Part shown: positions 20-15,736 of the stretch, piece after piece
Position numbering within the stretch: position 1 is the first letter of the stretch
Layout: each line of letters begins with the position of its first letter
The notes under the pieces: generated by a model
What the model was told of the DNA's origin: nothing
Database searches by the model: none
What the model saw: only the letters and a program-made list of their open reading frames with translations
Program-made: the position numbers and the translations under genes
Virus record (IMG/VR): IMGVR_UViG_3300029705_003980
Strand: one strand, 5' to 3'
Length of the DNA: 20,000 nucleotides
DNA from: an uncultured virus (IMG/VR IMGVR_UViG_3300029705_003980)
Lineage: Duplodnaviria > Heunggongvirae > Uroviricota > Caudoviricetes

Positions 20-421
20 ATGGAAAAAATCAAACTGTTTTTTGCAGCAATCGGCACGGCTCTTTCGTATGTTTTCGGAGGTATGGACACAATGCTCACC
101 ATCCTCATTGTCTTTATGACCATTGATTTTATCAGCGGCTTCACAAAGGCTTGGGCATTGAAAGAGTTTGATTCAAGCAAGTTTTACATCGGTGGTGTTA
201 AAAAGTTCGGCATTCTGCTTATCGTGGCTGTTGCATCTCTGCTTGACAACATCATCCACATTGACAGCGTGGCTCTGCGAACTGTGGCTATCTCTTACTA
301 CATCGCAAATGAAGGCTTTTCCATTCTTGAGAATTGGGGTGCTTTGGGACTTCCGCTTCCGAAAGCCATCAAGAGTGCTCTTGCAAAGTTGAGAAAGGAT
401 GAGGACGATGAATCTGAATAA
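20..421 (+). CDS. Phage holin (toxin secretion/phage lysis holin, Phage_holin_4-like)
   Basis: AGGAGG RBS at 6-11. 133 aa with hydrophobic segments, the D..SG..KA and YYIANEGFSILEN.G.LGLP.P motifs, and a charged C-terminal tail. Overlaps the endolysin start. Confidence 0.92.
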   Translation: MEKIKLFFAAIGTALSYVFGGMDTMLTILIVFMTIDFISGFTKAWALKEFDSSKFYIGGVKKFGILLIVAVASLLDNIIHIDSVALRTVAISYYIANEGFSILENWGALGLPLPKAIKSALAKLRKDEDDESE

Positions 422-1133
422 GCTGTTTCTCACACAGAATAACTGCTACAAAGCCGGAAAGAAAATTACCGTCAAAGGTATTATGGTTCATTCAACGGGT
501 GCAAACAACCCGTGGCTGAAGCGTTATCTCCCGGATGATGGAAAAATCGGTGTAAATAAGTACGGAAATCATTGGAACACACCACTTCCCGGTGGAAAGC
601 AAGTGTGCGTTCACGGCTTCATCGGAAAGCTCGCTGATGGTTCGGTCGCATCCTACCAATGTCTGCCGTGGAATCACAGAGGTTGGCACGCAGGCGGTTC
701 TGCAAATAACACTCATATCGGGTTTGAGATTTGCGAGGACGGACTGACCGATGTTACATATTTCAATGCGGTGTACAAGGAAGCTGTCGAGCTTTGTGCA
801 TACCTTTGCAAAGAATACGGTCTTACAGAAAAGGACATCATCTGTCATTCGGAGGGATATAAAAAAGGCATTGCTTCCAACCACGGCGATGTTATGCATT
901 GGTTTCCAAAGCACGGCAAGAGTATGGACACTTTCAGATCTGATGTTGCAAAAATGCTGAAAGCAGATACTGCAATTACTGAACTGACGACCATCAACGA
1001 TATTGTCTGGGAGCTTTCCCATCGTGGCATCATTACAAATACGGAGCTGTGGCTGAAGAAACTCGAAGAAGATTCTAACAGCTATTGGCTTGCGAGAAAG
1101 ACCGCAAACTATCTGCGACAAAATAATATTTGA
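408..1133 (+). CDS. Endolysin, N-acetylmuramoyl-L-alanine amidase (Amidase_2 family)
   Basis: Motifs VHSTG, WHAG, IGFEICE, CHSE, SNHGD. Start moved to ATG 408 (MNLNKLFL) behind AAGGATGAGG. Follows the holin. Confidence 0.9.
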   Translation: MNLNKLFLTQNNCYKAGKKITVKGIMVHSTGANNPWLKRYLPDDGKIGVNKYGNHWNTPLPGGKQVCVHGFIGKLADGSVASYQCLPWNHRGWHAGGSANNTHIGFEICEDGLTDVTYFNAVYKEAVELCAYLCKEYGLTEKDIICHSEGYKKGIASNHGDVMHWFPKHGKSMDTFRSDVAKMLKADTAITELTTINDIVWELSHRGIITNTELWLKKLEEDSNSYWLARKTANYLRQNNI

Positions 1134-1245: not shown

Positions 1246-1626
1246 ATGAAACATGAAGCTATAGACCAATTAAGGTATCAGGGATTTGGTTACAGAAGAA
1301 TTGCCGCTATGCTCGGTATGCCCGAAGGCACAGTTAAATCATATTGTCGCAGACATCCTTTTGATATAAAGCAGAAGGTATGTTTTGAATGTGGGACACC
1401 AATTCAAAATACACCTCATAAGCGTGAAAAGAAATTCTGCTCGGATAAGTGCAGACAAAAATGGTGGAATAGCCATTTAGACCTTGTAAAAAGGAAGGCT
1501 ATCTACCATCTCACTTGTGAGCATTGTGGATGTGATTTTGAAAGTTATGGAAACAACCACAGAAGGTTCTGCTCTCGAACTTGTTATGCAAATTACAGAC
1601 GAAAGGTGGCTGAACCAAATGGATAA
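1246..1626 (+). CDS. HTH (sigma70 region 4-like) plus two Zn-finger motifs; LSR-associated protein
   Basis: AAGGAG RBS. HTH segment GFGYRRIAAMLGMPEGTVKSYCRR, then CFEC..FCSDKC and CEHC..FCSRTC. Confidence 0.8.
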   Translation: MKHEAIDQLRYQGFGYRRIAAMLGMPEGTVKSYCRRHPFDIKQKVCFECGTPIQNTPHKREKKFCSDKCRQKWWNSHLDLVKRKAIYHLTCEHCGCDFESYGNNHRRFCSRTCYANYRRKVAEPNG

Positions 1627-1848: not shown

Positions 1849-3156
1849 ATGGATAGAATAATTAAGCAAGTGGTGTTTGCTGCACCCACAATAATAACTG
1901 CGTTAAAGGTTGCTGCATATACGAGAGTTTCAAGCGGAAAAGACACTATGCTTCATTCACTTTCTGCACAGGTGAGCTACTACTCAAAGTACATTCAAGA
2001 ACATCCCGGTTGGATTTACTGCGGTGTTTATAGCGATGAAGCAATTACCGGGACAAAGGAAAGTAGGAAAAATTTTCAAAAGCTACTTCAGGATTGCAAA
2101 GCCGGGAAAATTGACCTTGTTATAACAAAGAGCATTTCAAGATTTGCCCGTAATACAGTAACACTTCTTGAAAACATTCGAGAATTAAAAAATCTCGGTG
2201 TTGGAGTTTTCTTTGAAGAGCAAAACATAAACACGCTTACAGCTGACGGAGAGCTTATGCTCACAATTCTCGCATCGTATGCACAAGAGGAGAGTTTGTC
2301 AGCAAGTGAGAATGCAAAGTGGAGAATTCATAAAGATTTTGAAAAAGGGATTCTTCCTAAAAATGTTCAGAACATTTATGGCTTCAACCGAACCGAAGAT
2401 GGTGGATTTGAGATAATTCCCGAAGAAGCAGAAATCGTTAAGGATATCTTCAACCTTTACCTTGAAGGCTTTGGATTTTTGAAAATCGCTCAACACCTTA
2501 ACGAACTTGGAGTTGAAAGCAATACGAGAGAGAAATGGTCGGATAAAAAAGTAAAGTACATACTTTCCAATGAGAAATATGTCGGTGATTTGCTTTTGCA
2601 GAAATCATTTGTTGTCGACCATTTAACAAAAAAATGCAAAAACAATAATGGCGAGAAACCTCAATATTATGTCAAGGACAACCATCAAGGCATTGTTTCA
2701 CGAGAAATATTTGAGGCTGTGCAAGAAGAAATAAAGCGAAGACAACTAAAATACGGCAAGCAACTCACAGTAGTTCCTACATATTTGTTTACAGGGAAAA
2801 TGCAATGTGGCATATGCGGAAAGAATTACCGAAGAAAAATCATTAGAGGGAAACCTATATGGAGATGCCCAACATTTGATAGGTTCGGCAAAAAGGAATG
2901 TCCATCGAAGCAAATCCCCGAAGATATATTGATTGATTTGACTATGGAGGTATTGGGTACAAAAACAGTTGATATGAGGGTTTTCAATAAGAAAATTTCA
3001 AAGATGTTTCTACCTTCTGCTGACCGCATAATATTTGAGTTTACAGATGGACATACCATTAAAAAAACATGGCAAAATCGGTCACGCAGCCAAAGTTGGA
3101 CAGATGAAATGAAGGAACAAGCACGGCAACATACTTTGAAGAGGAGGAAATACTAA
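1849..3156 (+). CDS. Large serine recombinase 1 (resolvase, recombinase and Zn-ribbon domains; short C-terminus)
   Basis: AGGAGG RBS. Catalytic YTRVSS, DEAITG, KSISRFARN, NEKYVG and the CGICG..C..C Zn ribbon. Confidence 0.95.
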   Translation: MDRIIKQVVFAAPTIITALKVAAYTRVSSGKDTMLHSLSAQVSYYSKYIQEHPGWIYCGVYSDEAITGTKESRKNFQKLLQDCKAGKIDLVITKSISRFARNTVTLLENIRELKNLGVGVFFEEQNINTLTADGELMLTILASYAQEESLSASENAKWRIHKDFEKGILPKNVQNIYGFNRTEDGGFEIIPEEAEIVKDIFNLYLEGFGFLKIAQHLNELGVESNTREKWSDKKVKYILSNEKYVGDLLLQKSFVVDHLTKKCKNNNGEKPQYYVKDNHQGIVSREIFEAVQEEIKRRQLKYGKQLTVVPTYLFTGKMQCGICGKNYRRKIIRGKPIWRCPTFDRFGKKECPSKQIPEDILIDLTMEVLGTKTVDMRVFNKKISKMFLPSADRIIFEFTDGHTIKKTWQNRSRSQSWTDEMKEQARQHTLKRRKY

Positions 3157-4739
3157 TGGCAAAAGCGGTAACAGTAATACCTGCCACAATACACCCATTA
3201 ACAAAACTGCCATCTTTAACGATGATGCTTCGCAGAACCTGCGGTTATGCAAGAGTATCAACAGATAAAGACGAGCAATTCACATCTTATGCTGCACAGG
3301 TAGATTATTATACGAATTATATTAAATCAAAGCCTGAATGGGAATTTGTGAAGGTTTACACGGATGAAGGAATCACAGGAACTAATACAAAAAAACGTGA
3401 TGGCTTCAACGAGATGATTCAAGATGCTCTTGACGGAAAGATTGACCTCATAGTTACCAAGTCTGTAAGCAGATTTGCAAGAAACACCGTAGACAGCTTG
3501 GTAACCATCCGCAAGCTCAAGGAAAAAGGTGTAGAGGTTTATTTTGAGAAAGAGAACATATGGACACTTGACAGCAAAGGTGAATTGCTCCTTACCATAA
3601 TGTCGAGCCTTGCACAGGAAGAAAGTAGAAGTATTTCCGAGAATGTAACTTGGGGCAAAAGAAAAAGTGCATCCGATGGAAAAATCAGTCTCGGATATAA
3701 GCAGTTCCTCGGTTACGACAAAGGTCCCAACGGAACTCTCATTGTGAACAAGGAACAGGCGGTCATCGTTAAGCGAATTTATAAAGAGTTTATGCAAGGC
3801 AAAACACCTTGTATGATTGCAAAAAGATTGACCCAAGAAGGAATTAAGACTCCTTCCGGCAGAGGAAAAAAGTGGAATGTAAGCGTTATTATGAGTATTC
3901 TAACAAACGAAAAATATAAAGGCTCGGCTCGACTTCAAAAGAGTTTTACTGTTGATTTCCTTTCAAAGAAAATAAAGAAAAATGAAGGCGAAGTTCCACA
4001 GTATTATGTTGAGAACAGCCACGAAGCTATCATTCCGCCCGATGAATGGGAAAGGGTTCAGAAGGAGTTAATTAGAAGAAAGAGTTTCGGCAGAAAATAC
4101 AGCGGAAACAGTATTTTTTCAACAAGGATTGTGTGTGGAAATTGCGGAGCATTCTTTGGCTCAAAGGTATGGAATTCAACCGATAAAAAATATCGTCGAA
4201 CCATATGGCAATGCAATGATAAGTTCAAAGGCGAAACACGATGTGCGACACCGCACTTAAGCGAAGAACAGCTAAAGGAAGCATTTATAACAGCATTCAA
4301 CCGATTGTTTGATAACAAGGATGAAATTATCGGAAATTGCACAACGATTGTGGAAATGCTGACCGACTGCACGGAGCTTGATAAAAAAATAGAAACCCTA
4401 CACCAAGAACTGGAAGTAATAGCGGAAATGGTACAGAAGTGTGTTGATGAAAATGCCTCAACCATTCAAAACCAAGATGAATACCTACAGCGTTATAACG
4501 GATTTGTAGCTCGATACGAGGAGGGGCTTGAAAAACTCCAAAAATATGAAAATGAAAAGGTACTACGCATAGCAAGGGGTGAATCCTTCAACGATTTTAT
4601 GAAAGCGTTTATTAACATAGACAGCAACATAATCGAATTTGACAACGACCTATGGGTTTCAACAGTTGAGAAAGTGAATGTAATGCACGATGGCAAACTG
4701 ATATTTGTTTTTCAAAATGGAACGGAGATTGAGGTTTGA
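3156..4739 (+). CDS. Large serine recombinase 2 (with Zn ribbon and coiled coil)
   Basis: YARVST, DEGITG, KSVSRFARN, NEKYKG, CGNCG..C..C and a heptad-rich C-terminus. TAATG stop/start overlap with LSR1. Confidence 0.95.
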   Translation: MAKAVTVIPATIHPLTKLPSLTMMLRRTCGYARVSTDKDEQFTSYAAQVDYYTNYIKSKPEWEFVKVYTDEGITGTNTKKRDGFNEMIQDALDGKIDLIVTKSVSRFARNTVDSLVTIRKLKEKGVEVYFEKENIWTLDSKGELLLTIMSSLAQEESRSISENVTWGKRKSASDGKISLGYKQFLGYDKGPNGTLIVNKEQAVIVKRIYKEFMQGKTPCMIAKRLTQEGIKTPSGRGKKWNVSVIMSILTNEKYKGSARLQKSFTVDFLSKKIKKNEGEVPQYYVENSHEAIIPPDEWERVQKELIRRKSFGRKYSGNSIFSTRIVCGNCGAFFGSKVWNSTDKKYRRTIWQCNDKFKGETRCATPHLSEEQLKEAFITAFNRLFDNKDEIIGNCTTIVEMLTDCTELDKKIETLHQELEVIAEMVQKCVDENASTIQNQDEYLQRYNGFVARYEEGLEKLQKYENEKVLRIARGESFNDFMKAFINIDSNIIEFDNDLWVSTVEKVNVMHDGKLIFVFQNGTEIEV

Positions 4740-4755
4740 TATACAAAATAGAACA

Positions 4756-4797
4756 AACCAAAATATATCAGTTATTTACAAAAATGTAGTTTGAGCA
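4756..4797 (+). repeat. Left copy of a 42-bp imperfect inverted repeat (putative recombination or binding site)
   Basis: AACCAAAATATATCAGTTATTTACAAAAATGTAGTTTGAGCA matches the reverse complement of 11487-11528 at 36/42 positions without gaps. Confidence 0.85.
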
Positions 4798-4870: not shown

Positions 4871-5779
4871 TTATTCTTCATCATTTTCTTCAGAAACAGG
4901 GTTGGAGTATTCGCCATCATAGTTCTCAAAAATGTCATATGGAACATCGTCCGAATAATCTTCATCATCGTCAATGAAATCAAAGGTATTGTCGTATAGC
5001 TTGTTTATAGAGAGCCTGAACGCCTTGTTCTTTTTCTTGCCGTTGTATGTTATAACCATAACTTCGGCAAATCCCATTGAACCGGGGCGTCGCTCTCTTG
5101 CACTTCTACTGAGTATTTTGGGGGTCAAAGCACCAATCTTGTCCTTAAACTCCTCATCGTCAAGACTTTTGTTGTATGTAACTATGAGTTTCGCTATAGC
5201 CTTTAGGATGTTGGCAGTAAAGGAATCACAATCTCCTTCCCAAGTTCCGACACAAATCCTTAAGGTTCTACTGAGGACATGAATGCCGTATTTTTGATAA
5301 ATCATTTCAAGTGTTGAAACCGCACCGATAACTCCGGGCGATTTTCTTAACCCTATCTCTAAACCAAAAGACTCAACAACCTCTTTTATAATAAGCTGGT
5401 CGTGATTTCCGGCTTCAATATTTGCCATAAACACTTCGTATGGCTTGAGACCTTTGACAAACTTCATCTGATTTGCAAAAATATCAGCTTCATGTTCATA
5501 GCTCAAATCGTCATAAATCATACACCACACAGGCGTTTCACGAGACCCGGAAACAAGTGCCACAATTTCAATGGTATGCTGACCATTAAAGACATAGTTT
5601 ATACCATTACGGCGGCTGACTTTTACAGGATTAATTTGGTACAAATCAAAATGCTCTGCAGCCTTTTCCACATGAGCTTCTGAAAGGCTACGCTGATAGT
5701 CTTGGTTGGAGACAAGGTTTTTGATAGGTATCTGTTCAAAATGTACTTGTGGTACAAAAGGATTAAATTCTTCCATCAT
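4871..5779 (-). CDS. ParB/Srx-fold (DUF6551/DGQHR-like) protein with acidic tail
   Basis: YQRSL and VFNGQHT motifs. AAGGAGG RBS; start is 5779 (ATGA overlap with the upstream stop) or 5776. Confidence 0.7.
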   Translation of the reverse strand: MMEEFNPFVPQVHFEQIPIKNLVSNQDYQRSLSEAHVEKAAEHFDLYQINPVKVSRRNGINYVFNGQHTIEIVALVSGSRETPVWCMIYDDLSYEHEADIFANQMKFVKGLKPYEVFMANIEAGNHDQLIIKEVVESFGLEIGLRKSPGVIGAVSTLEMIYQKYGIHVLSRTLRICVGTWEGDCDSFTANILKAIAKLIVTYNKSLDDEEFKDKIGALTPKILSRSARERRPGSMGFAEVMVITYNGKKKNKAFRLSINKLYDNTFDFIDDDEDYSDDVPYDIFENYDGEYSNPVSEENDEE

Positions 5780-6735
5780 TCCGCCTCCTTTATTGAAGCA
5801 AGTAAATCTTCTGCTTTTTCTATTAGTGAACACAATACCTTTATCAGTTTATTTCTTGCAGTATCTGATACAATATTTAAGTTTGCATGGCTTTGCGTTC
5901 TGTTTATGGAACTAACCCACGATGGTATCGTAAGTGTTAGTTCGGTAACCTCTGCATCCGGGTCAAATTCAGGCATATTTTTAATACTTGGTGTTACTGG
6001 CTGCTCTTCTGCGGCAGCAGAACCTATGGCTTTTCTTGAACTGCTGTATTTGAAATACGCTTTATGGCTCCGATTCATCCGCCGATTTACTTCACGAAGT
6101 TCATCCTCCGGCATATTCGCAAGGTCAATAATGTTTTTGTGTGAAATTTTATACCTTCCTGACAGTATTTTGGGAACAAGCTCCGGGACTTTACTTCCGA
6201 TCTGCTCAAGCGACCTTGTATACACAGCATATTTTTGAACTGTTCCTGCTGACACATTGTTTTCTTCACCGATTTTTCTTGCAGTTCTTATGCCAGAAAA
6301 ATTAGGATTTGGAGAGGCAAAATAATCTTCATCGGATATACTTTCATCGTAATTACGGTCAGAAGTATATTGATTATGCCCGGTTGGGTTTTTTCGGCTG
6401 CTGATAACTTTTTCGGTTTCATACTGCATTCCTATTAAAAATTTTCTTGTTTCATCGGAAATGTTACGTCTGCCGAGCTGATTGGCACATATCCAAGCAA
6501 TCGCATCTTCTTTTGACTCGAAGTCCATTTCTCTAACTTCGTAGGGAATGTTATGGCGAGTACATATTTCATATCTGTTATGTCCGTCAACAATAAAGCC
6601 TTTCCAAGTGATGATAGCTTCCCGGCATCCATCTTTCAAGATGTTCTCTTCAAGCTGTAAATATTCTTGACGGAGTAAGGGGCGTATTAAGTTTTTGAAC
6701 TCTTTATTTATTTTTAGCGGTTTTCGTCTTTCCAT
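5776..6735 (-). CDS. ParB N-terminal-like domain protein with central HTH
   Basis: LEENILKDG..IIT...IVDGHNRY (GxxR) and NQLGRRN motifs; HTH-like TARKIGEENNVSAGTVQKY. GGAGG RBS before ATG 6735. Confidence 0.8.
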   Translation of the reverse strand: MERRKPLKINKEFKNLIRPLLRQEYLQLEENILKDGCREAIITWKGFIVDGHNRYEICTRHNIPYEVREMDFESKEDAIAWICANQLGRRNISDETRKFLIGMQYETEKVISSRKNPTGHNQYTSDRNYDESISDEDYFASPNPNFSGIRTARKIGEENNVSAGTVQKYAVYTRSLEQIGSKVPELVPKILSGRYKISHKNIIDLANMPEDELREVNRRMNRSHKAYFKYSSSRKAIGSAAAEEQPVTPSIKNMPEFDPDAEVTELTLTIPSWVSSINRTQSHANLNIVSDTARNKLIKVLCSLIEKAEDLLASIKEAE

Positions 6736-6746
6736 AATTGCCTCCA

Positions 6747-7121
6747 TCAATTCTCTATGCGAGTAAGCGTTTTCATAGAAAAAACTGCCATATTATGAGA
6801 TGATACAATATTCCCGGTTAGCCTGTACGAACAATTCATTTCTAAATTACCAACTACACTAATCAGTTTTTTTACAAACGACATACTATACAACTCATAG
6901 GAGTTATCTGCCATAAGTTTTTGCGGTTTGATTTTTTCGGATTGGTCACCCGGAACAGCTTTTTCAACAGCTCTTATTGCAACACATTTATTATCTGGAT
7001 TTACAAGTAATTGAATATATGGAGGGTCACCAAGTAACCGAAGCATACTTTTATAAATTCTGATTCGGTACTTCTTCAAATCAACAGAAATTGTGACCGC
7101 AGGATTTGGGGTTTCTGTCAT
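6747..7121 (-). CDS. Hypothetical protein, single copy of the domain shared with the neighbouring genes
   Basis: AGGAGGTG RBS and ATGA overlap. IQLLVNPDNKCVAIR and SYRLTG motifs are shared with the two upstream proteins. Confidence 0.8.
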   Translation of the reverse strand: MTETPNPAVTISVDLKKYRIRIYKSMLRLLGDPPYIQLLVNPDNKCVAIRAVEKAVPGDQSEKIKPQKLMADNSYELYSMSFVKKLISVVGNLEMNCSYRLTGNIVSSHNMAVFSMKTLTRIEN

Positions 7122-7879
7122 ACCGATTCACCTCCTATGCTCGGATTTGGTACAGGAACAATATCAGTAGATTTATTTTCCTCCGTATTATCTTTTATGG
7201 AATACACAGCATATCCTTCAACAATGTTAATCTGCATAGACTGCTTATGCTCATTAAAAGGTAAACCGAACTGGTCTTGCCATTCAGCCGGGAAAACAGG
7301 AGTCCTCGAAGTTTTAGGCTTTCCGCCTTCTGGTGTGGTTCTCTGGTATACTTCAGTAGCTGTTAAGTCAAAAGCTAAAAGGTACTCGTCATTGGAGTGA
7401 ATGAGCTTGCCAAGCATTTTATACCTATGATTCGGATTCCAATCCATAAGTGAAACGACTTTTGCAAAAAACAATTTACAAGTAATTTGCTTTGATTTTC
7501 TCTTTCCGTTTGAAACTGTACACCATTGAAAGGAGTCTCTTGAACCTTCTTCGCAGGGGCGAAGTGCAAGGATTTTTTTCTGCCTGTTAATTAAGACTTG
7601 AGCATAATCGAAATTTGGGAATTTTGATAAGCACGCTGCATTGACATAGAATTTACAGTTATTGAAAGTACACGAAGGTTCTCGCATATGTGCAAAGAAT
7701 TCACGTCTAACAACCTGAAATCCATCAAAATCAAAATCCTCTCCCATATCAAGTATTTCATCATCCTCTGCCAACAGAGGAAAATTTTCAGGCTTGCGAA
7801 CTGCCATATTTGCATTTGCAGGTTCACCAACTGACCTCAAAATTTCAGACAATGTATTTTGTCCGTCAAACTCATTCAT
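7118..7879 (-). CDS. Recombinase-associated protein, paralogue of the LSR3 C-terminal domain
   Basis: AGGAGGT RBS. DFDFDGFQVVRREFF, QVLINRQKKILALR, WNPNHRYKMLG and FPAEWQDQFG align with the LSR3 C-terminus. Confidence 0.8.
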   Translation of the reverse strand: MNEFDGQNTLSEILRSVGEPANANMAVRKPENFPLLAEDDEILDMGEDFDFDGFQVVRREFFAHMREPSCTFNNCKFYVNAACLSKFPNFDYAQVLINRQKKILALRPCEEGSRDSFQWCTVSNGKRKSKQITCKLFFAKVVSLMDWNPNHRYKMLGKLIHSNDEYLLAFDLTATEVYQRTTPEGGKPKTSRTPVFPAEWQDQFGLPFNEHKQSMQINIVEGYAVYSIKDNTEENKSTDIVPVPNPSIGGESV

Positions 7880-9773
7880 TACTGCTTACCTCCTGTAAAT
7901 CAATATCTCTTAATTCTTGTTGTATGTATCTTCGCAGTTCCTCAAAGCTCGTTACATTCATTTTCTTGCCTGTTTCATAAAGATGTCCTTCGATGCGAAG
8001 TTTCCATTCGTGTTCGCTTTGTGTCTCAAGCTCTTCAATGGAATGTTCGTGCAGATAGTATTCCTTACCGAAATTATTTGTCCACGATTCAGGTATAGCC
8101 CTTATACGCTTCCCATAAGGAGTTAAAGGCTGCATCTTTACGCAAGTTGAAAACGGCTCGTCCTCTGCCATTTTTGGCACAAGGTGCGGCTTAAGGAACG
8201 CCTCGGTGTTTGCTGTGTCAAAAATGTAGGCAACTTGAGAACCTTCTACAAGCTCCGTTCCTGTTATACGATACCTAAAGTCATCGTTCCAGCCGAACAA
8301 AGAGTAGATGGTCTTACCGAAAGCTGCCGTTGAAATATTACGAGGAATAAACCTCTGTCCGCTTATCTTTGAACATACAACGCTCTGACGATTATCACTA
8401 TTCGTAGTCCTAACAGCGAATTTTCGTGTGATAGGATTTACAAGCAATTCAATATGATTGTTGTTACCGATTTTGTTAGTACAACTTGCACTTAACGATA
8501 TATGCTTATCTCCAAAATTGATAATAGGCCTATGGAATGTGTCAAACAGCTCCATTCGTGCTACCTCAAAGCCACGAAGGTCAAAATCCCCGGCTTCAAC
8601 CTCAACAGTAACTTCCTCTGCTTTTTCAATGTTGGGGTCATAGTCGGGACCATAAACGCTGTGTGATGCCTTGAGATAATCCGTTTCTTTAAAAGATGCC
8701 CAACGAGGATTTATCACAACAAAGCCTTTTAATATTCCGCTATCAATAACTCGCAGTTCGGGAAGGTATGCCTTATTGCGATACTTTGCATTATCAAGCA
8801 TTCGCTGAACAGCAAGAAAATCATCCCTTGATACAATTGCTTCGTGATGATTTTTATAGATGCTCTGTGGCTTTTGTCCTGTGTTTTTCATTGTTTTTCG
8901 CTCACGATAATTGAGTTTGAACCTTTTCCTTGTTTTAACATAACCACAATGCCGTTCATTTCGGAGTATTTGAACCACGCCTCCGGCTGTCCATTTTATA
9001 TTGCCGAGGTAAGATTTACGCCCCAAAGCAATAAGAACATCTGCAATTTGCTTTGTTGAATATCCGTAAAGGTACATATAAAAAACAAGTTTTACGGTTG
9101 GTGATTCTTCGTGGTTAATGATTAGGTTACCTTCGCTATCGTGTGTATATCCGAGCAACTTTGGAGTAAGCGGGATACCATTGTCAAGCCTCATTCGGAG
9201 AGAGGTTTCCATACTTCTGCTTCTTGTGTGGGACTCTTCCTCTGCCATAGTAGCAATAAATGATAGTGCCATTTGCGAGTCATCATTTAAGGTGAAAATT
9301 GCCTCCGATTCAAAGAATACACCAACGGGAGATTTCAGTTCTGCCAGTTCTCGTACTAACTGAATCGTATCTACAAGGTTACGAGCAAAACGGGAAACAT
9401 TCTTTGTGATAATTAGGTCAATTTTCCCGGCTCGGCAGTCATTCAACATTTTATTGAAATCATCTCTGTAATCTTTAGAAGTTCCGCTTATGCCCTCATC
9501 TGCGTAAATGTGGACGAGTGTCCAATTTTCACGGCTTCTGACAAAATCTTCATAGTATATTTTTTGAAGCTCAAAGGAAGTGGTTTGTCTTTCATCATCT
9601 GTTGACACACGTGCATAGACAGCAACTCTCTGTGGCACATCTGTATCGTAATAATCACGTTGTTTTTGGGCAGGAATGTACTCATAGTTTTCTTCGTCTA
9701 TTTGAACGTGCATTCGCTGCCTTTGCTTTTCTCTTGAATGTTCCTTTGACATTCGCTTATCGTTATCAATCAC
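7872..9773 (-). CDS. Large serine recombinase 3, no Zn ribbon, atypical C-terminal domain
   Basis: GTG start with AAGGAGG RBS. YARVST, DEGISG, KNVSRFARN, LRNERHCG and HEAIVS motifs. No CxxC ribbon after the recombinase domain. Confidence 0.92.
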   Translation of the reverse strand: MIDNDKRMSKEHSREKQRQRMHVQIDEENYEYIPAQKQRDYYDTDVPQRVAVYARVSTDDERQTTSFELQKIYYEDFVRSRENWTLVHIYADEGISGTSKDYRDDFNKMLNDCRAGKIDLIITKNVSRFARNLVDTIQLVRELAELKSPVGVFFESEAIFTLNDDSQMALSFIATMAEEESHTRSRSMETSLRMRLDNGIPLTPKLLGYTHDSEGNLIINHEESPTVKLVFYMYLYGYSTKQIADVLIALGRKSYLGNIKWTAGGVVQILRNERHCGYVKTRKRFKLNYRERKTMKNTGQKPQSIYKNHHEAIVSRDDFLAVQRMLDNAKYRNKAYLPELRVIDSGILKGFVVINPRWASFKETDYLKASHSVYGPDYDPNIEKAEEVTVEVEAGDFDLRGFEVARMELFDTFHRPIINFGDKHISLSASCTNKIGNNNHIELLVNPITRKFAVRTTNSDNRQSVVCSKISGQRFIPRNISTAAFGKTIYSLFGWNDDFRYRITGTELVEGSQVAYIFDTANTEAFLKPHLVPKMAEDEPFSTCVKMQPLTPYGKRIRAIPESWTNNFGKEYYLHEHSIEELETQSEHEWKLRIEGHLYETGKKMNVTSFEELRRYIQQELRDIDLQEVSSNE

Positions 9774-10389
9774 CTAAAAGCCTCCTTTCTTGGAGTAGTT
9801 TAATTGCTTCTTCTTCATCATCCGGGAGAACTTTCCAATTAGGTGAAGGAAGGAACTCTGTATCTCTTAAATCTTCAGTATGATAAGAGGCAAGTGTATA
9901 AATATCTTCTGAAACGATGTATATACCAACAGGAGGTGTCTGTGCCGCAAGTAACCTTGATAACAAAATTAAGTCTTCCTCATATTGTGTTATATTCTTC
10001 TTTTTTTGAGTTATTATGAGGTCAACTTTTCCATTCATTGAATCATCTATAAGTCTTACCAATTCAGGAGAGTATTTCATTTTTGGTGCGGTATTGCCTT
10101 CGTCTATATAAAAGTCCACAAACTTCCACTTTGGGCAAAGGGCAATGGTGTCCAAGAACTGCTTTTTATGATGTGCGAGATAGTTTTCGTGCTTTGTTTG
10201 GTTGAAGTATCTGATATATACGCCTATCTTATACTCCTTTGTTGTACTCGGGCGCTCGTGCCGAATGGTCTGCAGCCAAGCCTTATGCTCTGCAATTTTA
10301 ATAGCCTGTTCCGATGTTTCCCCAAATGTGAGAGCAAACTGCGGTGTAGCTATGGCATTTAATTTATCAAATACTTCAAGTTCGTCCAT
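9766..10389 (-). CDS. Resolvase-fold protein lacking catalytic residues (207 aa)
   Basis: GGAGG RBS before ATG 10389. Recognisable fold motifs (W.FVDFYIDEG, GKVDLIIT), but YIRYF replaces YxRVS and QKKKNIT replaces KSxSRFAR. Confidence 0.8.
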   Translation of the reverse strand: MDELEVFDKLNAIATPQFALTFGETSEQAIKIAEHKAWLQTIRHERPSTTKEYKIGVYIRYFNQTKHENYLAHHKKQFLDTIALCPKWKFVDFYIDEGNTAPKMKYSPELVRLIDDSMNGKVDLIITQKKKNITQYEEDLILLSRLLAAQTPPVGIYIVSEDIYTLASYHTEDLRDTEFLPSPNWKVLPDDEEEAIKLLQERRLLGD

Positions 10390-10448: not shown

Positions 10449-10484
10449 ATAAACCCACAGTCAGGTGCTTGACTATGGGTTTAT
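10449..10484. repeat. 36-bp dyad site A
   Basis: ATAAACCCACAGTCA-GGTGCT-TGACTATGGGTTTAT has 15-bp arms with one mismatch and is 28/36 identical to 11444-11479. Confidence 0.8.
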
Positions 10485-10512: not shown

Positions 10513-10554
10513 AAAAAAAGAGTGAGACTAATTCATCTTGAATTCATCTCACTC
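10513..10554 (-). terminator. Rho-independent terminator of the leftward XRE gene
   Basis: Hairpin GAGTGAGA-CT-AATTCA-TCT-TGAATT-CA-TCTCACTC overlaps the stop codon and is followed by T7 on the minus strand. Confidence 0.75.
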
Positions 10555-10912
10555 AATAATCGTTATTTTCCTTTGGGGTATGCAAGGTTGTCTTTACTTG
10601 CTTCACAATCTTTATGATTGATTCTATTTCAGAAGGACTACAATCCGATAGCAGTTCGGAATATTCTTTTTGATACAGCTCGTTCACTTCCGGGGTGTCG
10701 GGACGAAGAATAATATCCGCTGAAACTTGAAGTGCCTCAACAATTCTTACGAAGGTTGTGAGCCACATTTTGCTTTTTCCAAGTTCAATATCACTTAAAT
10801 TGGAAGGTGAAATGTGAGCTTCAAAAGCGAGGTCATTTTGTGTCATCTTCTTGGACAGGCGGATTTCTCTGATTCGCTGACCTATTTCTTTAGTTTTCAG
10901 TTTTTCGTCCAA
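10553..10912 (-). CDS. XRE-family HTH transcriptional regulator (left)
   Basis: IGQRIREIR..KKMTQNDLA...ISPSNLSDIELGK. Likely TTG start at 10912 behind GAGGTG. Confidence 0.9.
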   Translation of the reverse strand: MDEKLKTKEIGQRIREIRLSKKMTQNDLAFEAHISPSNLSDIELGKSKMWLTTFVRIVEALQVSADIILRPDTPEVNELYQKEYSELLSDCSPSEIESIIKIVKQVKTTLHTPKENNDY

Positions 10913-10989
10913 AAATAACACCTCACTTCGTCATTTGACTATATTTATGATACATTTTATCATCACTTGGATATATTGTGAATAGCGAG

Positions 10990-11019
10990 TTGGATAGATA
11001 TTATCCGATAAGATATAAT
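10990..11019 (+). promoter_or_regulatory. Putative sigma-A promoter of the rightward XRE, overlapped by dyads
   Basis: TTGGAT-N18-TATAAT. Overlapped by GGATA-N5-TATCC (10992-11006) and TATC-N6-GATA (11002-11015). Confidence 0.5.
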
Positions 11020-11053
11020 GTTAAGTGAAATATTTTTTAAGGAGGAAAAATAT

Positions 11054-11389
11054 ATGGAACTTAACTACATCATTATCGGAAAGCGAATTAAGGAGGTGAG
11101 AAAAAAGAGAAAATTATCGCAAGAGGCTCTTGCAGAACTTATTGAAAAAAGTCCGCCCTATATCAGTTACATAGAAACTGCAAAAAAGCACTTGAGTTTG
11201 GAAACGCTGATTGATATAGCAAATGCATTACACATTTCCGTTGATTCACTTCTGGCGGCAAATGTCCTGTATAAAACGGAAGTTAGGGATGAGTTCAGCG
11301 AACTTATGAGCGATTGCGAAGAATACGAAAAGCGAATAATTGTTGACACAGTTAAAACTCTAAAACAATCACTTCGTTTGGAACTTTAA
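11054..11389 (+). CDS. XRE-family HTH transcriptional regulator (right)
   Basis: AAGGAGG RBS. IGKRIKEVRKKRKLSQEALAE...SPPYISYIETAK. Confidence 0.92.
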   Translation: MELNYIIIGKRIKEVRKKRKLSQEALAELIEKSPPYISYIETAKKHLSLETLIDIANALHISVDSLLAANVLYKTEVRDEFSELMSDCEEYEKRIIVDTVKTLKQSLRLEL

Positions 11390-11443
11390 CATTCCCGATT
11401 TTCTCATTATTTGCTATTATATTCGATTATAAAACAATTAACC

Positions 11444-11479
11444 ATAAACCCGTTGTTATAGGCTTGACTACGGGTTTAT
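11444..11479. repeat. 36-bp dyad site B
   Basis: ATAAACCCGTTGTTATAGGCTTGACTACGGGTTTAT. Perfect 11-bp arms at 11443-11453 and 11470-11480; direct repeat of site A. Confidence 0.8.
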
Positions 11480-11486
11480 GAAAAAG

Positions 11487-11528
11487 TGCTCAAACTACAT
11501 TTTCGGCAAAAACTACTATATTTTGGTT
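11487..11528 (-). repeat. Right copy of the 42-bp imperfect inverted repeat
   Basis: TGCTCAAACTACATTTTCGGCAAAAACTACTATATTTTGGTT; its reverse complement matches 4756-4797 at 36/42. Confidence 0.85.
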
Positions 11529-11554
11529 GAAAACGAGATTTTTAGCACACTATT

Positions 11555-11563
11555 TGGTATAAT
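11555..11563 (+). promoter_or_regulatory. Extended -10 promoter of the phosphoesterase operon
   Basis: TGGTATAAT (TGn plus consensus -10) just before the GGAGG RBS at 11571. Confidence 0.6.
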
Positions 11564-11582
11564 TATATGCGGAGGTTTTATT

Positions 11583-12290
11583 ATGATTTACTATACTGGA
11601 GATATACACGGCGAACCCTCAAGGGTGATTAAATTTGCCGATAAATTGAACTTAACAAGCAAAGATACGATTGTTATTCTTGGTGATGTCGGTGCAAATT
11701 ACTTTCAGGATTTCCGTGACGAAATAACGAAAAAGAAGTTAAATGACATCGGTGTAACAATTCTTTGTATTCACGGAAATCACGAAGTCCGTCCGGCAAA
11801 TATCCCTTCATACTCATTGATGGTTTGGGAAGGTGGCAAAGTGTGGTATGAGGATAAATATCCAAACCTATTATTTGCTAAAGACGGAGAAATATATACT
11901 CTCAATGGTATGCGTTATCTTGTTGTAGGCGGAGCGTACAGCGTGGACAAACACTACAGACTTGCAATGAACAGAGGCTGGTGGGCAGATGAGCAGCCTT
12001 CGGATGAAATCAAGCATTATGTTGATAGTCAAATTGTGAAAAATGAAATTGATGTTGTTCTTTCTCACACTTGTCCGCTTAAGTTTGAACCGACAGAAGC
12101 ATTCTTGCCGGGAATCGACCAAACAAGTGTGGATAAAAGCACAGAAATATGGCTTGATGAAATTGAAGAAAGGATATCATATAAAGCGTGGCTCTGCGGT
12201 CATTGGCATATTGATAAGAGTATAAATAACTTTCATTTTCTTTTTAATTCTTGGAAAAGTGCTGCAGACATTTTCGTAGAAAGTGAGTGA
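11583..12290 (+). CDS. Calcineurin-like metallophosphoesterase 1
   Basis: GDIHG, LGD, GNHE, SHT and GHWH motifs. GGAGG RBS before ATG 11583. Confidence 0.9.
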   Translation: MIYYTGDIHGEPSRVIKFADKLNLTSKDTIVILGDVGANYFQDFRDEITKKKLNDIGVTILCIHGNHEVRPANIPSYSLMVWEGGKVWYEDKYPNLLFAKDGEIYTLNGMRYLVVGGAYSVDKHYRLAMNRGWWADEQPSDEIKHYVDSQIVKNEIDVVLSHTCPLKFEPTEAFLPGIDQTSVDKSTEIWLDEIEERISYKAWLCGHWHIDKSINNFHFLFNSWKSAADIFVESE

Positions 12291-12726
12291 TATTATGGGA
12301 AAATATAAATTTTTACAGCCAGTCGAGGAAATGGAACACATAAGCCGAGCCGAACTTGGTGAACGCTTTGATGAAATTCTCGAAGCCTGCGAAAAGGATA
12401 ATGTAGGCTTTGTAATTACCGACTGCGGAAAAAATGATGTTGTTTTATGTCCTGCTCGTTGGATTGATTTTAGGTTCGATGATGATTTCGGCTGTATAAT
12501 GAATTGTGCAGTCAGATATGCACTCGGAAGAAACACCTATATGCCCGGTCTTGTATGTGATTTTGTGCGTAAATATATGAGTATTTTTGATGCAAAAACC
12601 ATTGATGTTATCATTCAGGACATTGACAGGGATTTAGAGTTCGGTTTAGACCAAAAAGAACTCTGGATTTCATTAAAGAACGACCTTCTCAAGTTTAAGG
12701 AAACGCGGGGTGATAAGAATGAGTGA
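12283..12726 (+). CDS. Hypothetical protein with a Phd/YefM-like N-terminal domain fused to a phage-type helical domain
   Basis: ISRAELGERFDEILE....VGFVITDCGKNDVVLCP fits the Phd pattern; the C-terminus contains AVRYALGRNTY. Start is 12283 or 12295. Confidence 0.6.
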   Translation: MSDIMGKYKFLQPVEEMEHISRAELGERFDEILEACEKDNVGFVITDCGKNDVVLCPARWIDFRFDDDFGCIMNCAVRYALGRNTYMPGLVCDFVRKYMSIFDAKTIDVIIQDIDRDLEFGLDQKELWISLKNDLLKFKETRGDKNE

Positions 12727-13351
12727 AAAATATTATATCTTTCAATTGGATGACCCTGCTACACCCGGTTTCTGTTCTTTTAACAAATTATATGTTGGCA
12801 CAGAAGCTGATTTGATGCATGTGGCAAATAATCTTGAAAAAGAAAATCACTACCACGAAACAGTTGCGGCATTACGAAGCTACTTTAATGGGAATAGAGA
12901 TGCAACGCACAGAATTGCATATTCTACAATGAAAATACTTACACCGATTGATATTGAATCCGAGCATAAAATTTCATTTGGTGAAAAGAAATGGACACAC
13001 ATTAACATTTGGGGATTCCCATATGAAATGAAGTGTGATTCCGGCATTACACATCAAATCGTTTTCAAACACGATGATAAATACTATCGCTGCATTCGTG
13101 CATGGCTTAAGAATTTATGTTATGAAAGTGTCAATGGCGAATGGCATCAATTAACTGATGGCTTTTGGGGAAATTACTCAATTCTTGATGTATCTTTTAT
13201 GCCTGATAAGAAGAATTTCACATTCAATAATCTTCTGTATGTAATTGAAGAAATTTATGAGGATGAGGTAAAAAAAGCTATTGACGATTTGCTTTTAGAA
13301 GAAAAGATAGAGATGAAAGGCATCTGTGATGAAATTTTCGCAGATGGTTGA
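12719..13351 (+). CDS. Hypothetical protein
   Basis: 210-aa ORF abutting or overlapping its neighbours in the operon; no motif recognised. Confidence 0.75.
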   Translation: MSEKYYIFQLDDPATPGFCSFNKLYVGTEADLMHVANNLEKENHYHETVAALRSYFNGNRDATHRIAYSTMKILTPIDIESEHKISFGEKKWTHINIWGFPYEMKCDSGITHQIVFKHDDKYYRCIRAWLKNLCYESVNGEWHQLTDGFWGNYSILDVSFMPDKKNFTFNNLLYVIEEIYEDEVKKAIDDLLLEEKIEMKGICDEIFADG

Positions 13352-13356
13352 ATGCA

Positions 13357-13542
13357 ATGGTACTTGAAACAATAACATTGGAAATTGAAACAAAACTATA
13401 TGAAGAGGCTAAAGAAGTAATCGAAAAAGAAGGCTACACCATTGAAGAGGCAATTATAATGTTTTTTAAGGCGTGTATTGCTTGTGGTGGGTTTCCTTTT
13501 CCTGTGTCAAAGGAGGAATTGCTCGAAGCTCAAGGAGGATAA
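13357..13542 (+). CDS. RelB/DinJ-like ribbon-helix-helix antitoxin-type protein
   Basis: ITLEIETKLYEEAKEVIEKEGYTIEEAIIMFFKA....GGFPF matches the RelB/DinJ pattern. Confidence 0.7.
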   Translation: MVLETITLEIETKLYEEAKEVIEKEGYTIEEAIIMFFKACIACGGFPFPVSKEELLEAQGG

Positions 13543-13545
13543 CAA

Positions 13546-14271
13546 ATGATATATGTACTTTCCGATATACACGGAAACACGGAGAGGTTTAATTCTATAA
13601 TGGAACAGATAAATCTTCAGCCGGAAGACACTTTATACATACTCGGTGATGTTGTAGACCGATATCCCGATGGAATTAAGCTCTTAAGAAAAATAATGAA
13701 AATGGATAATGTGAAAATGCTTCTTGGAAACCACGAATATATGATGCTGAATGCTCTTGACCCTATCAGCGAAAGAGATGAATGGGAGCAGGAACGCTCG
13801 CTTCGGTTGTGGTATAGGAATGGTGGTTTTGTCACTCATAACTATTTGAAGCATATACGAAAAGATATACGAAGAGAGGTTTTTAACTTCCTACGAAAGC
13901 TCCCTGTAAATATCAAGATTGAGGTTGGGGGCAAAAAATTCTTGCTTGTTCACGGCTCACCTTTAGAGAATTATAGTTGGATATTCCGAGAATATGAAAC
14001 GAAAGAAAAGTTTGCTGTTTGGGAAAGATGGCAGCCCTTTGACCCTGTTCCCGAAGGATACACTTTGGTGTTCGGTCATACACCTACTATCCATTTCCAA
14101 AACAATGACCCATTGGAGATTTTATTTTGTGATAATGCAATAGGAATTGACTGTGGTTCGGGGTTTCCAAAATCACAATTTGAGGGAGAAACTATCGGCA
14201 GACTTGCTTGTTTAAGACTTGATGATATGAAGATTTTCTACTCGAAGGAAGAAGGTGCAAATAATGGCTGA
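13546..14271 (+). CDS. Ser/Thr protein phosphatase-like metallophosphoesterase (PPP/lambda/PrpA type)
   Basis: SDIHG, GDVVDR, GNHE, W..NGG, VHG, FGHTPT and IDCG motifs; AAGGAGG RBS. Confidence 0.9.
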   Translation: MIYVLSDIHGNTERFNSIMEQINLQPEDTLYILGDVVDRYPDGIKLLRKIMKMDNVKMLLGNHEYMMLNALDPISERDEWEQERSLRLWYRNGGFVTHNYLKHIRKDIRREVFNFLRKLPVNIKIEVGGKKFLLVHGSPLENYSWIFREYETKEKFAVWERWQPFDPVPEGYTLVFGHTPTIHFQNNDPLEILFCDNAIGIDCGSGFPKSQFEGETIGRLACLRLDDMKIFYSKEEGANNG

Positions 14272-15520
14272 TAAATTATATGCTCCTCAAATTGACAGAT
14301 TTAGACATCAATTTGGACACTTGGGGTTTAGTTATTCAAATGGTATAACCTATGATGAAGAAACCTATCGTTTATTGAATCTGTTTTTTAAGGAATTACG
14401 CAAAATTTCACCTATCGCAGAGAATGGCTGCCGTGAGATATGGGTTCGTGCCGAGCGAGGTAATATTGATGCATATGGAAATTATGAAGAATGGCTTGAT
14501 TGTGGTGATGTCGAAAATTATGAGGAGTTTGAAAAATCGTGGTTAGCTGACTATCCCAACGAAACAAAGTGGTATCATATTGAGGCGGTTGAAACTGAAA
14601 CCGGGCATCAAGCGGTGGTCATAAATGAAAGATTTGTGTTTGAGGTTGCTCCTGATCAAGAGAAGGGATTCCCTCACGATACAAGTGTTTTTGCAAAATG
14701 GCTTCTTGATTCAATTAAATCTGTAATTATGCAGTTGAAAAGCGGGACATATATGGATTTTGTTAAGCAAAATCTGCCTGTAGAATTAAGGACAGGAACA
14801 ATACGTCAAAGTGATTTGTGGGAGATATACCCGGAAGACCGCACAAGATTTTTTGACGGAATAACAGACGAGGAAATTGAGGAAATATCTGAACTCTTAA
14901 ATAAACAGCCACAAGATGGATATAAGCCGGAAGGTCGCATTGCATCGGTTACAGCGAATGACTTCTTTAATTATTGTGCGATTGGTTATAAGGCTATGTC
15001 TTATAAATGGTATGGGATGACTCCAAAAGAACTCTATTATCGCTATGCAGATGGCAGAGATGAAGGTCTTTCCGAGGTTGACGCTGATTCCCCAGAGGCA
15101 TTTTCAAAATGGTTGAATAACAAAAGTCGTGGCGGAGGGCATCCGTGGGAAGTATGTCGAGGCGGTAATTCCACACATATAGCTCTACAAGTAGGCAATG
15201 ATGAAAAGGGGTATTTCCTTTTTCTCGCAGGCTCGTCATACGGCAGGGCAAATGAAACACTAAAGTTCTTCTTGGCACTTTCCCGTGCAGGTCTGCCTGT
15301 TTATCTCCACGACAGCGATGTTTTCATAAAAAGAATTCAAGGCACAGAAAAAATCGGAGTAATGCCACAAGGGGTTATTCCCAAATACTGTGAAAGTTCC
15401 TTCCCGAATGAAAAAATAATATCCTTTATGAATCTGCCATATGAAAACACAGATGCCGTTGCAAGCAAATGTGTATGGCAGGATATAAGGGAAGTTCATC
15501 TTTTAACAGAGGAGGTGTAA
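14264..15520 (+). CDS. Hypothetical protein (418 aa)
   Basis: Long ORF coupled to the phosphatase gene, with conspicuous ADGRDEGL and GGHPWEVCRGGNSTH motifs. Confidence 0.85.
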   Translation: MADKLYAPQIDRFRHQFGHLGFSYSNGITYDEETYRLLNLFFKELRKISPIAENGCREIWVRAERGNIDAYGNYEEWLDCGDVENYEEFEKSWLADYPNETKWYHIEAVETETGHQAVVINERFVFEVAPDQEKGFPHDTSVFAKWLLDSIKSVIMQLKSGTYMDFVKQNLPVELRTGTIRQSDLWEIYPEDRTRFFDGITDEEIEEISELLNKQPQDGYKPEGRIASVTANDFFNYCAIGYKAMSYKWYGMTPKELYYRYADGRDEGLSEVDADSPEAFSKWLNNKSRGGGHPWEVCRGGNSTHIALQVGNDEKGYFLFLAGSSYGRANETLKFFLALSRAGLPVYLHDSDVFIKRIQGTEKIGVMPQGVIPKYCESSFPNEKIISFMNLPYENTDAVASKCVWQDIREVHLLTEEV

Positions 15521-15521
15521 T

Positions 15522-15731
15522 ATGGCTGTCTCTTATAATAAGCTATGGCACATATTGATTGATAGAAAAATGCGAAAAAAGGACTTGCAGGAAGCAGCCG
15601 GACTAACACCACACATTATGCTTGTTTTACGCAAAAATAAGCATATTACAACTACAACAATATGGAAAATATGCAAAGCTCTAAACTGCACCGCAGATGA
15701 TTTTTTGGAGTTTGTTGAAGTGGAGGGTTGA
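15522..15731 (+). CDS. Cro/C1-type (HTH_26) small regulator
   Basis: AGGAGGTG RBS. SYNKLWHILIDRKMRKKDL...KICKALNC..DD. Confidence 0.88.
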   Translation: MAVSYNKLWHILIDRKMRKKDLQEAAGLTPHIMLVLRKNKHITTTTIWKICKALNCTADDFLEFVEVEG

Positions 15732-15736
15732 TACTG

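Follow-up and report, generated by a model that had tools for sequence, protein, structure and literature searches.

Why should a temperate phage encode a large serine recombinase (LSR) in one operon with what looks like a dead copy of a recombinase catalytic domain, two copies of the enzyme's own C-terminal domain and two ParB-like proteins, and what could such a set of proteins do? The question is raised by six genes, named here g1 to g6, located on the minus strand at positions 4871-10389 of the window, that is, the whole stretch of 20,000 nucleotides (nt) analysed from the uncultured virus record IMGVR_UViG_3300029705_003980 of IMG/VR (Caudoviricetes). A preliminary description of this DNA had proposed that the six products make up a multi-subunit recombination machine. 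The window is part of a temperate phage infecting gut Clostridia, and g1-g6 are a single conserved, translationally coupled operon that belongs to the lysogeny/immunity region in a sub-lineage of Heliusvirales-type temperate phages of these hosts. With moderate confidence we suggest that the operon is an accessory composite serine-recombinase system of the lysogenic phase, separate from the probable integrase pair LSR1/LSR2 encoded beside it.

The genes of the operon and the hairpin that closes it were read directly on the sequence and are the following (lengths in amino acids, aa; RBS, ribosome-binding site):

9766..10389, minus strand: g1, start ATG at 10389, stop at 9766, RBS GGAGG; 207 aa
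7872..9773, minus strand: g2, encoding LSR3, start GTG at 9773, stop at 7872, 8-nt overlap with g1; 633 aa
7118..7879, minus strand: g3, start ATG at 7879, stop at 7118, 8-nt overlap with g2; 253 aa
6747..7121, minus strand: g4, start ATG at 7121, stop at 6747, 4-nt overlap (ATGA) with g3; 124 aa
5776..6735, minus strand: g5, start ATG at 6735 after GGAGG, 11-nt gap to g4, an in-frame TTG at 6750; 319 aa
4871..5779, minus strand: g6, start ATG at 5779, stop at 4871, ATGA overlap with g5, RBS AAGGAGG; 302 aa
4829..4861, minus strand: terminator-like intrinsic hairpin, a 13-pair stem followed by a T-run

Each start is preceded by a GGAGG-type RBS, and reading of the minus strand confirmed the coupled genes, the strong RBSs and the one terminator that had been described, with all five junctions (9773/9766, 7879/7872, 7121/7118, 6747/6735 and 5779/5776) placed correctly. 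In related loci, where start codons were picked by a heuristic of our own, neighbouring genes mostly overlap or are spaced by at most 20 nt, the g1/g2 overlap being found in 73 of 74 cases and the g3/g4 overlap in 81 of 93. Two terminator-like hairpins stand between g1 and the cI-like repressor gene upstream of it, and the operon therefore probably has a promoter of its own, for which no convincing candidate could be defined.

The six genes also travel together. Of 27 pattern matches to g3 in IMG/VR, 17 were confirmed as loci, and a scan of one genome per species gave 366 stretches confirmed by tblastn out of 437, from which the best 80 were kept. Genes g2-g6 are colinear in 71 of these best 80 genome loci and in 14 of the 15 non-identical viral loci; in the ten others the contig breaks off within the block, so that the order holds in every locus that spans it. 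Gene g1 is less constant: 65 of the 71 genome loci have it, as do 8 of the 14 viral loci, and it is truly absent, with the upstream region present, from L001 and L013-L016. The co-occurrence on which the preliminary description depended is thus borne out by the gene neighbourhoods. Hosts named in the records are Oscillospiraceae, Christensenellaceae, Lachnospiraceae, Ruminococcus and Anaerotignum. Gene g3 was found in 20 phage records, where every matched gene is annotated as a hypothetical protein and which include reference genomes of a lineage highly prevalent in the human gut. The nearest named relative, Blautia phage NatCom_2932, labelled Ca. Heliusvirales, has the same layout except that it does not have g1, and 89% of the sampled words of the window are common to one viral record of 17.7 kb.

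At the centre of the operon is a recombinase that is normal at one end and unusual at the other. LSR3 matches the Pfam families Resolvase (PF00239; 9.7e-26, 91 bits) and Recombinase (PF07508; 3.5e-20, 72.6 bits against a cut-off of 21.1), and S57, R55, R128 and R131 are invariant in 46 of 46 orthologues; the catalytic centre is intact and the recombinase domain retained. No Pfam match to Zn_ribbon_recom (PF13408) was obtained for LSR3 in the same scan in which LSR1 and LSR2 both matched this family. Over its C-terminal ~275 aa LSR3 shows homology to g3 (E 3e-20) and to g4 (BLASTP E 2e-5) instead, so that a novel beta-rich domain, called here the X domain, stands where the Zn ribbon and coiled coil normally sit. 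LSR3 had been called an atypical LSR and it is atypical in this respect. A match to the NCBIfam model XisF was weak (56 bits against a cut-off of 375).

Gene g1 is the counterpart with the catalytic centre lost. Its identity with the catalytic domain of LSR3 is 38% (E 5e-14), and its score against Pfam Resolvase, 20.6 bits with a cut-off of 23.3, leaves it outside the serine resolvase/invertase family as Pfam defines it. In all 48 non-redundant orthologues the column of the catalytic serine is a gap with F or Y adjacent and the equivalent of R128 is N, and in the ortholog alignment the alpha-E helix is absent. By its sequence g1 is a degenerate and catalytically dead resolvase catalytic domain, in agreement with its first designation as a dead resolvase.

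The two following genes had been described as accessory paralogues. They are indeed related (BLASTP of g4 against g3, E 0.003), not merely to each other: with the E values given above, both are free-standing paralogues of the X domain of LSR3. In relatives g4 is always located between g3 and g5. No family match to g3 was found in Pfam, PHROG, NCBIfam or PADLOC, and a profile search of the PDB with it gave 0 matches. An AlphaFold2 (AF2) model of g3 built on 145 sequences had a predicted local distance difference test score (pLDDT) of 79.5, with a core at residues ~70-180 above 90 that consists of two tandem beta-beta-alpha-beta-beta units. Foldseek against the pdb database returned nothing at E<=1e-3 for this model, PCNA and MvaI appearing only with TM 0.1, and a wide search of the fold with VIA gave weak matches to MraZ (1n0e, Z 3.6, root mean square deviation 5.3, 96 aligned) and to plant B3 domains (Z 2.8 and 2.7), which may be taken as a hint of a DNA-binding barrel and no more. 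The X-domain profile matched 3286 cluster representatives at E<=1e-3, in which the domain is free-standing or fused to an LSR. Eighteen X-domain proteins of intermediate length were tested, and eight were fragments of LSR3 (seven with a Recombinase match and one with a Resolvase match), one contained Lar_N and nine had no Pfam match.

One record of the Heliusvirales without the operon, PV036425.1 (L147), contains near its left end a 400-aa open reading frame (ORF, 1596-2798) that is its sole match to the hidden Markov models (HMMs) of the operon genes; the match of this ORF to the LSR3 profile (E 3e-104) is confined to the catalytic and recombinase domains, the X domain being absent. A run of 630-aa, 229-aa and 121-aa genes in the same record was considered as a divergent form of the operon and rejected, as the HMMs match none of the three.

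Multimer modelling, which the preliminary description had suggested for the six proteins, was run for g1 and LSR3(40-215), the only pair so modelled, with each partner supplied as an alignment. Contact was predicted with an ipSAE of 0.85, the best of three controls reaching 0.02, and at least 75% of the contacts agreed across three runs with a partner pLDDT of at least 81; of 157 solved complexes 116 attain this mark, and of 215 mismatched pairs 2 do. In this model g1 packs onto the last core strand of LSR3 and the start of alpha-E (153-161 and 163-176), the interface taking in also the helix after the SRFARN motif. The proposal of a multi-subunit complex is in this way upheld, as a prediction, for one pair of its members, g1 and the catalytic domain of LSR3. 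The further suggestion that the ParB-like proteins control synapsis, directionality or target choice gained no support from the analysis.

The last two genes had been described as encoding two proteins of ParB fold. For g5 this agrees with the AF2 model (pLDDT 84.7), for which Foldseek found pNOB8 ParB-N (5k5d, E 1.2e-4) and Spo0J (1vz0, E 1e-3), both with probability 1.0 and over 200-250 aligned columns, together with ParB-CDP, Noc and KorB over the N-domain and the helix-turn-helix (HTH). The predicted fold is that of the ParB family, with an N-terminal ParB/sulfiredoxin (Srx)-like domain, an HTH and a helical C-terminus. None of 57 members of the g5 family matched Pfam ParBc, and the best matches in a profile search of the PDB were unrelated proteins. 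Across the same 57 sequences the motif DGHNRY is near-invariant (D50, G51, H52, R54 and Y55), and it contains the GxxR nucleotide-binding motif.

For g6 the relation to ParB/Srx comes by annotation only, namely from the name of PHROG 1033, 'ParB-like partition protein' (6e-13), from one Atlas cluster automatically named ParB/Sulfiredoxin and from a preprint on DUF6551 fusions; the protein itself matches Pfam DUF6551 (PF20188) with 117.4 bits against a gathering cut-off of 26.8, over profile positions 4-238 of 242. At the place equivalent to GxxR it has the invariant residues G66-Q67-H68-T69. The GxxR mutants that had been proposed would thus apply to g5 only, since g6 has GQHT and no arginine.

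The place of the operon in the phage can be seen from the neighbouring features of the window:

20-421, plus strand: holin
399-1133, plus strand: amidase
1246-1626, plus strand: small HTH/Zn protein (PHROG 2308, HTH/Zn-ribbon)
1849-3156, plus strand: LSR1, canonical large serine recombinase with Zn ribbon (Pfam)
3156-4739, plus strand: LSR2, canonical large serine recombinase with Zn ribbon (Pfam)
10553-10921, minus strand: cI-like HTH repressor (Pfam HTH_3, 9.2e-11), directly upstream of the operon on the same strand, its adjacency to g1 being conserved
11018-11389, plus strand: cro-like gene, with the early genes beyond it

The first 5 kb of the early operon (window 11478-16513) include three genes for calcineurin-like metallophosphatases (11583-12290, 13546-14271 and 15728-16513), and the true start of the ORF at 11478 is probably the M near 11583.

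Two kinds of repeats were identified around the immunity genes:

10449..10484: P1, 36-bp palindrome with half-site TGACTnnnGGTTTAT, ~60 nt upstream of g1
11444..11479: P2, another copy of this palindrome, shortly past the end of cro (48-nt direct repeat D1, 79% identical; motif matches)
4756..4797: 42-nt inverted repeat (36/42) enclosing g6...cro, left arm
11487..11528: right arm of the same repeat, beside P2 and upstream of the early operon

P1 and P2 flank cI-cro in the window. In 38 of 79 loci the strict motif TGAC-N4-GGTTTAT precedes the first operon gene by at most 200 nt, and in 7 of 72 it occurs beyond cro, with 2 matches in the remaining 1.35 Mb; blastn-short linked the P1 and P2 positions in 16 of 67 loci, and the palindrome is present too in an island of the Anaerotignum chromosome to which we return below. 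It is a family-specific site tied to the 5' end of the operon, for which a parS-like function, an operator function and an RNA hairpin are all candidates.

The 42-nt inverted repeat was considered as a pair of recombination sites, which was not supported: the repeat is confined to the clade of the window, and its core AAAATGTA is a strand-specific element upstream of the early operon, present beyond cro in 28 of 72 loci, always on the operon strand (0 of 72 on the other). An equivalent inverted match exists in L006, L021, L028 and L046, with 12-nt matches in five more loci and none in 45 of 67, and the copy that follows g6 in L021 is directed towards cargo genes. The repeat may represent duplication of a regulatory region, either promoter or operator. 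In locus L034 a direct repeat of ~111 nt (93% identical; 4381-4491 and 11316-11425) brackets cro-cI-g1..g6. One of its copies consists of the 3'-terminal ~36 codons of an LSR2-type gene, and the left neighbour consists of an HTH protein and a 451-aa ORF in place of the usual early genes. The arrangement looks like insertion of a cassette at the 3' end of a recombinase gene and was seen in this one locus out of 67.

Which enzyme, then, integrates the phage? The preliminary description had cast LSR3 as the recombinase of the element, a role for which the adjacent pair LSR1/LSR2 seems the likelier candidate. LSR2 is ~50% identical to recombinases of the pairs found at the right end of many streptococcal prophages (phi1207.3 type). 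In the phi1207.3 paper (PMC4260502) this pair is proposed, and not demonstrated, to carry out excision and integration. Among the 60 matches listed, 19 were PV0364xx records with an LSR2-type gene, several of them at the very end of the record; 17 of the 19 had no g3 match and two had one. In the complete prophage G032:C92, which spans about 59.2-116.5 kb, the end of LSR2 is 0.65 kb from the right junction, with the operon ~9 kb inside, and host genes (EamA transporter, GGDEF/EAL proteins, guaA) begin right after a small early gene. The strings GAGCCGTGAA and TCACGGTT are shared by its two junctions (about 59150-59180 and 116466-116507) around terminator-like hairpins, and may be a candidate for the core of the attachment (att) site, as read by eye; neither is related to the palindrome. 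In G021 the early genes give way, 5-7 kb beyond cro, to host genes (TetR, BspA-type surface protein), at a junction that recurs in a contig from another sample, and LSR1/LSR2 are internal. Matches of LSR1 and LSR2 to the NCBIfam models CcrB/CcrA were weak and far under the cut-offs. Because LSR1/LSR2 is the likelier integrase, the operon is more readily understood as an accessory module of a sub-lineage, and LSR3 is probably not the primary integrase. The survival of an intact operon in three prophage remnants devoid of structural genes, described below, points the same way.

Taken in this way, the accessory lysogen-phase system that we favour could work as follows. In the lysogen g1 would keep LSR3 as an inactive heterodimer of a live and a dead subunit, and the X-domain paralogues would assume the job of the coiled coil and the directionality factor, gating site recognition and synapsis. 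For the ParB-family proteins the palindrome near the operon would be a parS-like site of loading or regulation from which, once bound, they would position or license the recombinase. The output would be a rearrangement of DNA on family-specific sites during lysogeny, which we rank above primary integration, and might consist in the control of excision or of the immunity region, or in the capture and exclusion of superinfecting relatives. In a stronger form, which we hold to be unlikely, an LSR has handed site choice and on/off control to separate subunits: the dead paralogue would cap the catalytic domain, the X-domain copies would serve site recognition or synapsis, and NTP-dependent clamps of the ParB family, loaded at the nearby palindrome, would license recombination at a distance; if true, this last property would explain att junctions that lie kilobases away.

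Several observations weigh against the favoured reading. The predicted contact concerns g1 and LSR3 alone, and its high score may in part mirror known structures, because solved resolvase dimers exist and g1 is a paralogue of its own predicted partner domain. The palindromes might instead serve cI or cro as operators or form RNA hairpins, and P1 scores as terminator-like. The ParB fold of g6 rests on annotation, this protein having no sequence match in the PDB and no homology to g5 by BLASTP or hhalign (probability 0.13). Neither a recombination site, nor a product, nor a junction was found: 20 runs are listed as containing the stretch or part of it, all as contigs, and the Logan contigs of four of these (X3, X4, X5 and X7) bridge LSR2-g6 and P1-cI-cro-P2 in the reference orientation only, contigs being a form of data from which rare forms are dropped. 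Joints of an inverted or excised module that came up in contigs were rejected, their sides being 20-44 letters long at 90% likeness and looking like other organisms or repeats. Finally, the assignment of integration to LSR1/LSR2 has its own difficulties. These genes are not next to the prophage end in window-type proviruses either, and their cassette shifts position while the prophage ends do not: in the window, G021 and G022 it follows the lysis genes, and in G032:C92 it is inside the early operon. In three partial records (G023, G024 and G025, which are 72%, 46% and 28% complete) LSR3 and g1 are the sole Resolvase matches and no tyrosine integrase (PF00589) was matched, so that LSR3 could be the integrase in some phages.

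These last points carry the alternative that survives best, in our estimate a doubtful one, that LSR3 and its five partners are the phage family's own machine for integration and excision, and the HTH/Zn-LSR1-LSR2 cassette a recombinase element that hitch-hikes. The place of the operon in the lysogeny module is fixed and the cassette moves, the prophage ends keep the same map position wherever the cassette stands, the catalytic residues of LSR3 are invariant, and G023-G025 offer no other Resolvase match. The att junctions are nevertheless 5-9 kb from the operon, pairs of LSR2 type stand at the prophage ends in streptococcal and other Heliusvirales records, records labelled Heliusvirales exist without g3, and the records without LSR1/LSR2 are incomplete.

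A second alternative takes the operon for a superinfection-exclusion or defence system expressed in the lysogen, in which a recombinase complex would act on incoming DNA that carries the palindromic sites of the family. Its placement, immediately downstream of cI and on the same strand, can be likened to that of rexAB, which sits downstream of cI in lambda, and the palindrome is conserved across diverged relatives. The fate of the operon in degraded prophages also bears on this idea. In three chromosomes, those of Anaerotignum neopropionicum (G002:C4), a complete Oscillospiraceae chromosome (G003) and G031:C11, the operon persists in surroundings of host or other mobile genes, accompanied by cI/cro and by few early genes or none. 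All six ORFs are intact, and the 95-140 kb of sequence around each (about ±40-75 kb) yielded no homologue of a structural gene. This suggests that the function is selected in the lysogen or host, and it may equally be the usual persistence of the immunity end of a prophage, since remnants often retain that end by position alone. Defence-type cargo adjoins g6 in relatives, as AAA_21 with RloB in L077 and as an SNF2 helicase with a DUF4391 protein in L021. On the other side, PADLOC-DB 2.0 returned 0 families for each of the six proteins at E<=0.01, and we know of no defence system built on a serine recombinase. We consider this alternative unlikely.

Cargo of this type was seen at the g6 end or at the prophage ends in L021 (13603-18385), L077 (13226-15069) and L121 (1152-8592). 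The helicase of L021 has a YspA/SLOG domain and is accompanied also by a WapI-like protein, and G022 carries a type I restriction-modification system with HamA and a helicase (Hachiman-like). The Anaerotignum remnant is an island of ~7 kb that contains only the genes cro-cI-g1...g6, between host genes. At 60500-60706 of this locus (L104), 105 nt from the stop of g6, there is a fragment of ~200 nt that is repeated elsewhere in the genus and which, judged from its translation and with no family call, is the 5' end of an IS256-type transposase-like gene; two 16-nt direct repeats GTTTACACnnACTTTG stand between this fragment and g6 (60707-60812). An empty site was searched for in 15 genomes of the genus, and both flanks were found on different contigs. 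Rfam gave nothing over 9 kb.

The operon might, thirdly, be two functions that are merely co-transcribed, with g1-g4 as a recombinase unit and the ParB pair as silencers of KorB or Noc type that stabilise lysogeny from the palindromes flanking cI-cro. This is consistent with the matches of the g5 model to KorB, Noc and ParB structures over the N-terminal domain and HTH, with palindromes that flank the immunity genes, and with the binding of CTP or ATP by phage ParB-fold/DUF6551 fusions, as reported in a preprint (10.1101/2025.10.10.680097). We think it very unlikely, given that the g4/g5 and g5/g6 junctions are coupled as tightly as the others and that g2-g6 are never apart in 85 spanning loci.

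That the unit cro-cI-g1...g6 is a mobile cassette moved by LSR3 is scarcely credible: the repeats that bracket exactly this unit in L034 and g6...cro in the window, as well as the Anaerotignum island made of these genes alone, would fit it, yet the direct repeat occurs in 1 of 67 loci, the inverted repeat is limited to the clade of the window and resembles a duplicated promoter region, the cassette keeps the same map position throughout the family, and the islands look like deletion remnants, one of them abutted by the IS256 fragment. Maintenance of a plasmid prophage by a resolvase and a partition system was rejected, as the cassette is found in chromosomes and in proviruses with host flanks and no ParA match was obtained.

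Compared with known systems, the favoured accessory recombinase system resembles several and coincides with none. Phage LSRs with a recombination directionality factor (RDF), such as phiC31 Int/gp3, Bxb1 Int/gp47 and SPbeta SprA/SprB, share with LSR3 the Ser/Arg catalytic domain, the Recombinase domain and a gene in the lysogeny module, and control of the recombinase by a separate protein is an established principle. They differ in that LSR3 does not have the Zn ribbon and coiled coil that set directionality in those enzymes, in the five co-encoded partners here as opposed to a single RDF, and in the att site, which here is not adjacent. Paired LSRs, such as phi1207.3 orf56/orf57 and CcrA/CcrB of SCCmec, also provide several serine recombinases per element, and LSR1/LSR2 are of this kind. 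In those pairs both members are full, active LSRs, whereas in the operon a live LSR is accompanied by a dead catalytic domain and by pieces of the LSR's own C-terminal domain. In the excision of the Anabaena fdxN element XisF is an LSR that needs two further co-encoded proteins, XisH and XisI, and its C-terminus is normal for an LSR; the likeness is in the extra co-encoded proteins, XisH and XisI being unrelated to the X domain or ParB.

CTP-dependent clamps of the ParB, KorB and Noc type are matched by the g5 model in the N-domain and HTH, and parS adjoins many par loci as the palindromic site adjoins the operon. Here, in contrast, there is linkage to a recombinase, g5 is not seen by Pfam ParBc and no ParA partner is present: no match of ParA/CbiA type was found among the scanned proteins of the window, and the six members of the operon are fixed in relatives. 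Moreover the prophage is integrated in the chromosome and would therefore need no partition function. In the gamma-delta/Tn3 resolvases, with their accessory sites, and in Hin/Fis the serine recombinase is inactive until a specific nucleoprotein assembly has formed, and the assembly employs extra DNA sites or host proteins in place of dead paralogues or ParB-like subunits. The preliminary description had not recognised the arrangement as a characterised system, and full-text searches of the literature likewise gave no paper describing it; the words recombinase, integrase, ParB and lysogen have 0 occurrences in the paper on the Heliusvirales (PMC11283538), supplements aside.

LSRs are major tools of genome engineering, and their directionality is understood through the mechanism of the coiled coil and the RDF. 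An LSR that does without the coiled-coil module and is accompanied by a dead paralogue, by fragments of its own domain and by ParB-family proteins would, if our reading is true, represent a different and possibly modular form of recombinase control. Should control by separate subunits be true as well, ParB-type clamps would be tied for the first time to site-specific recombination, and the enzyme would be a naturally modular recombinase. The arrangement is very widespread, with 3286 X-domain representatives, 366 confirmed loci in the one-per-species genomes and a place in a phage lineage that is prevalent in the human gut.

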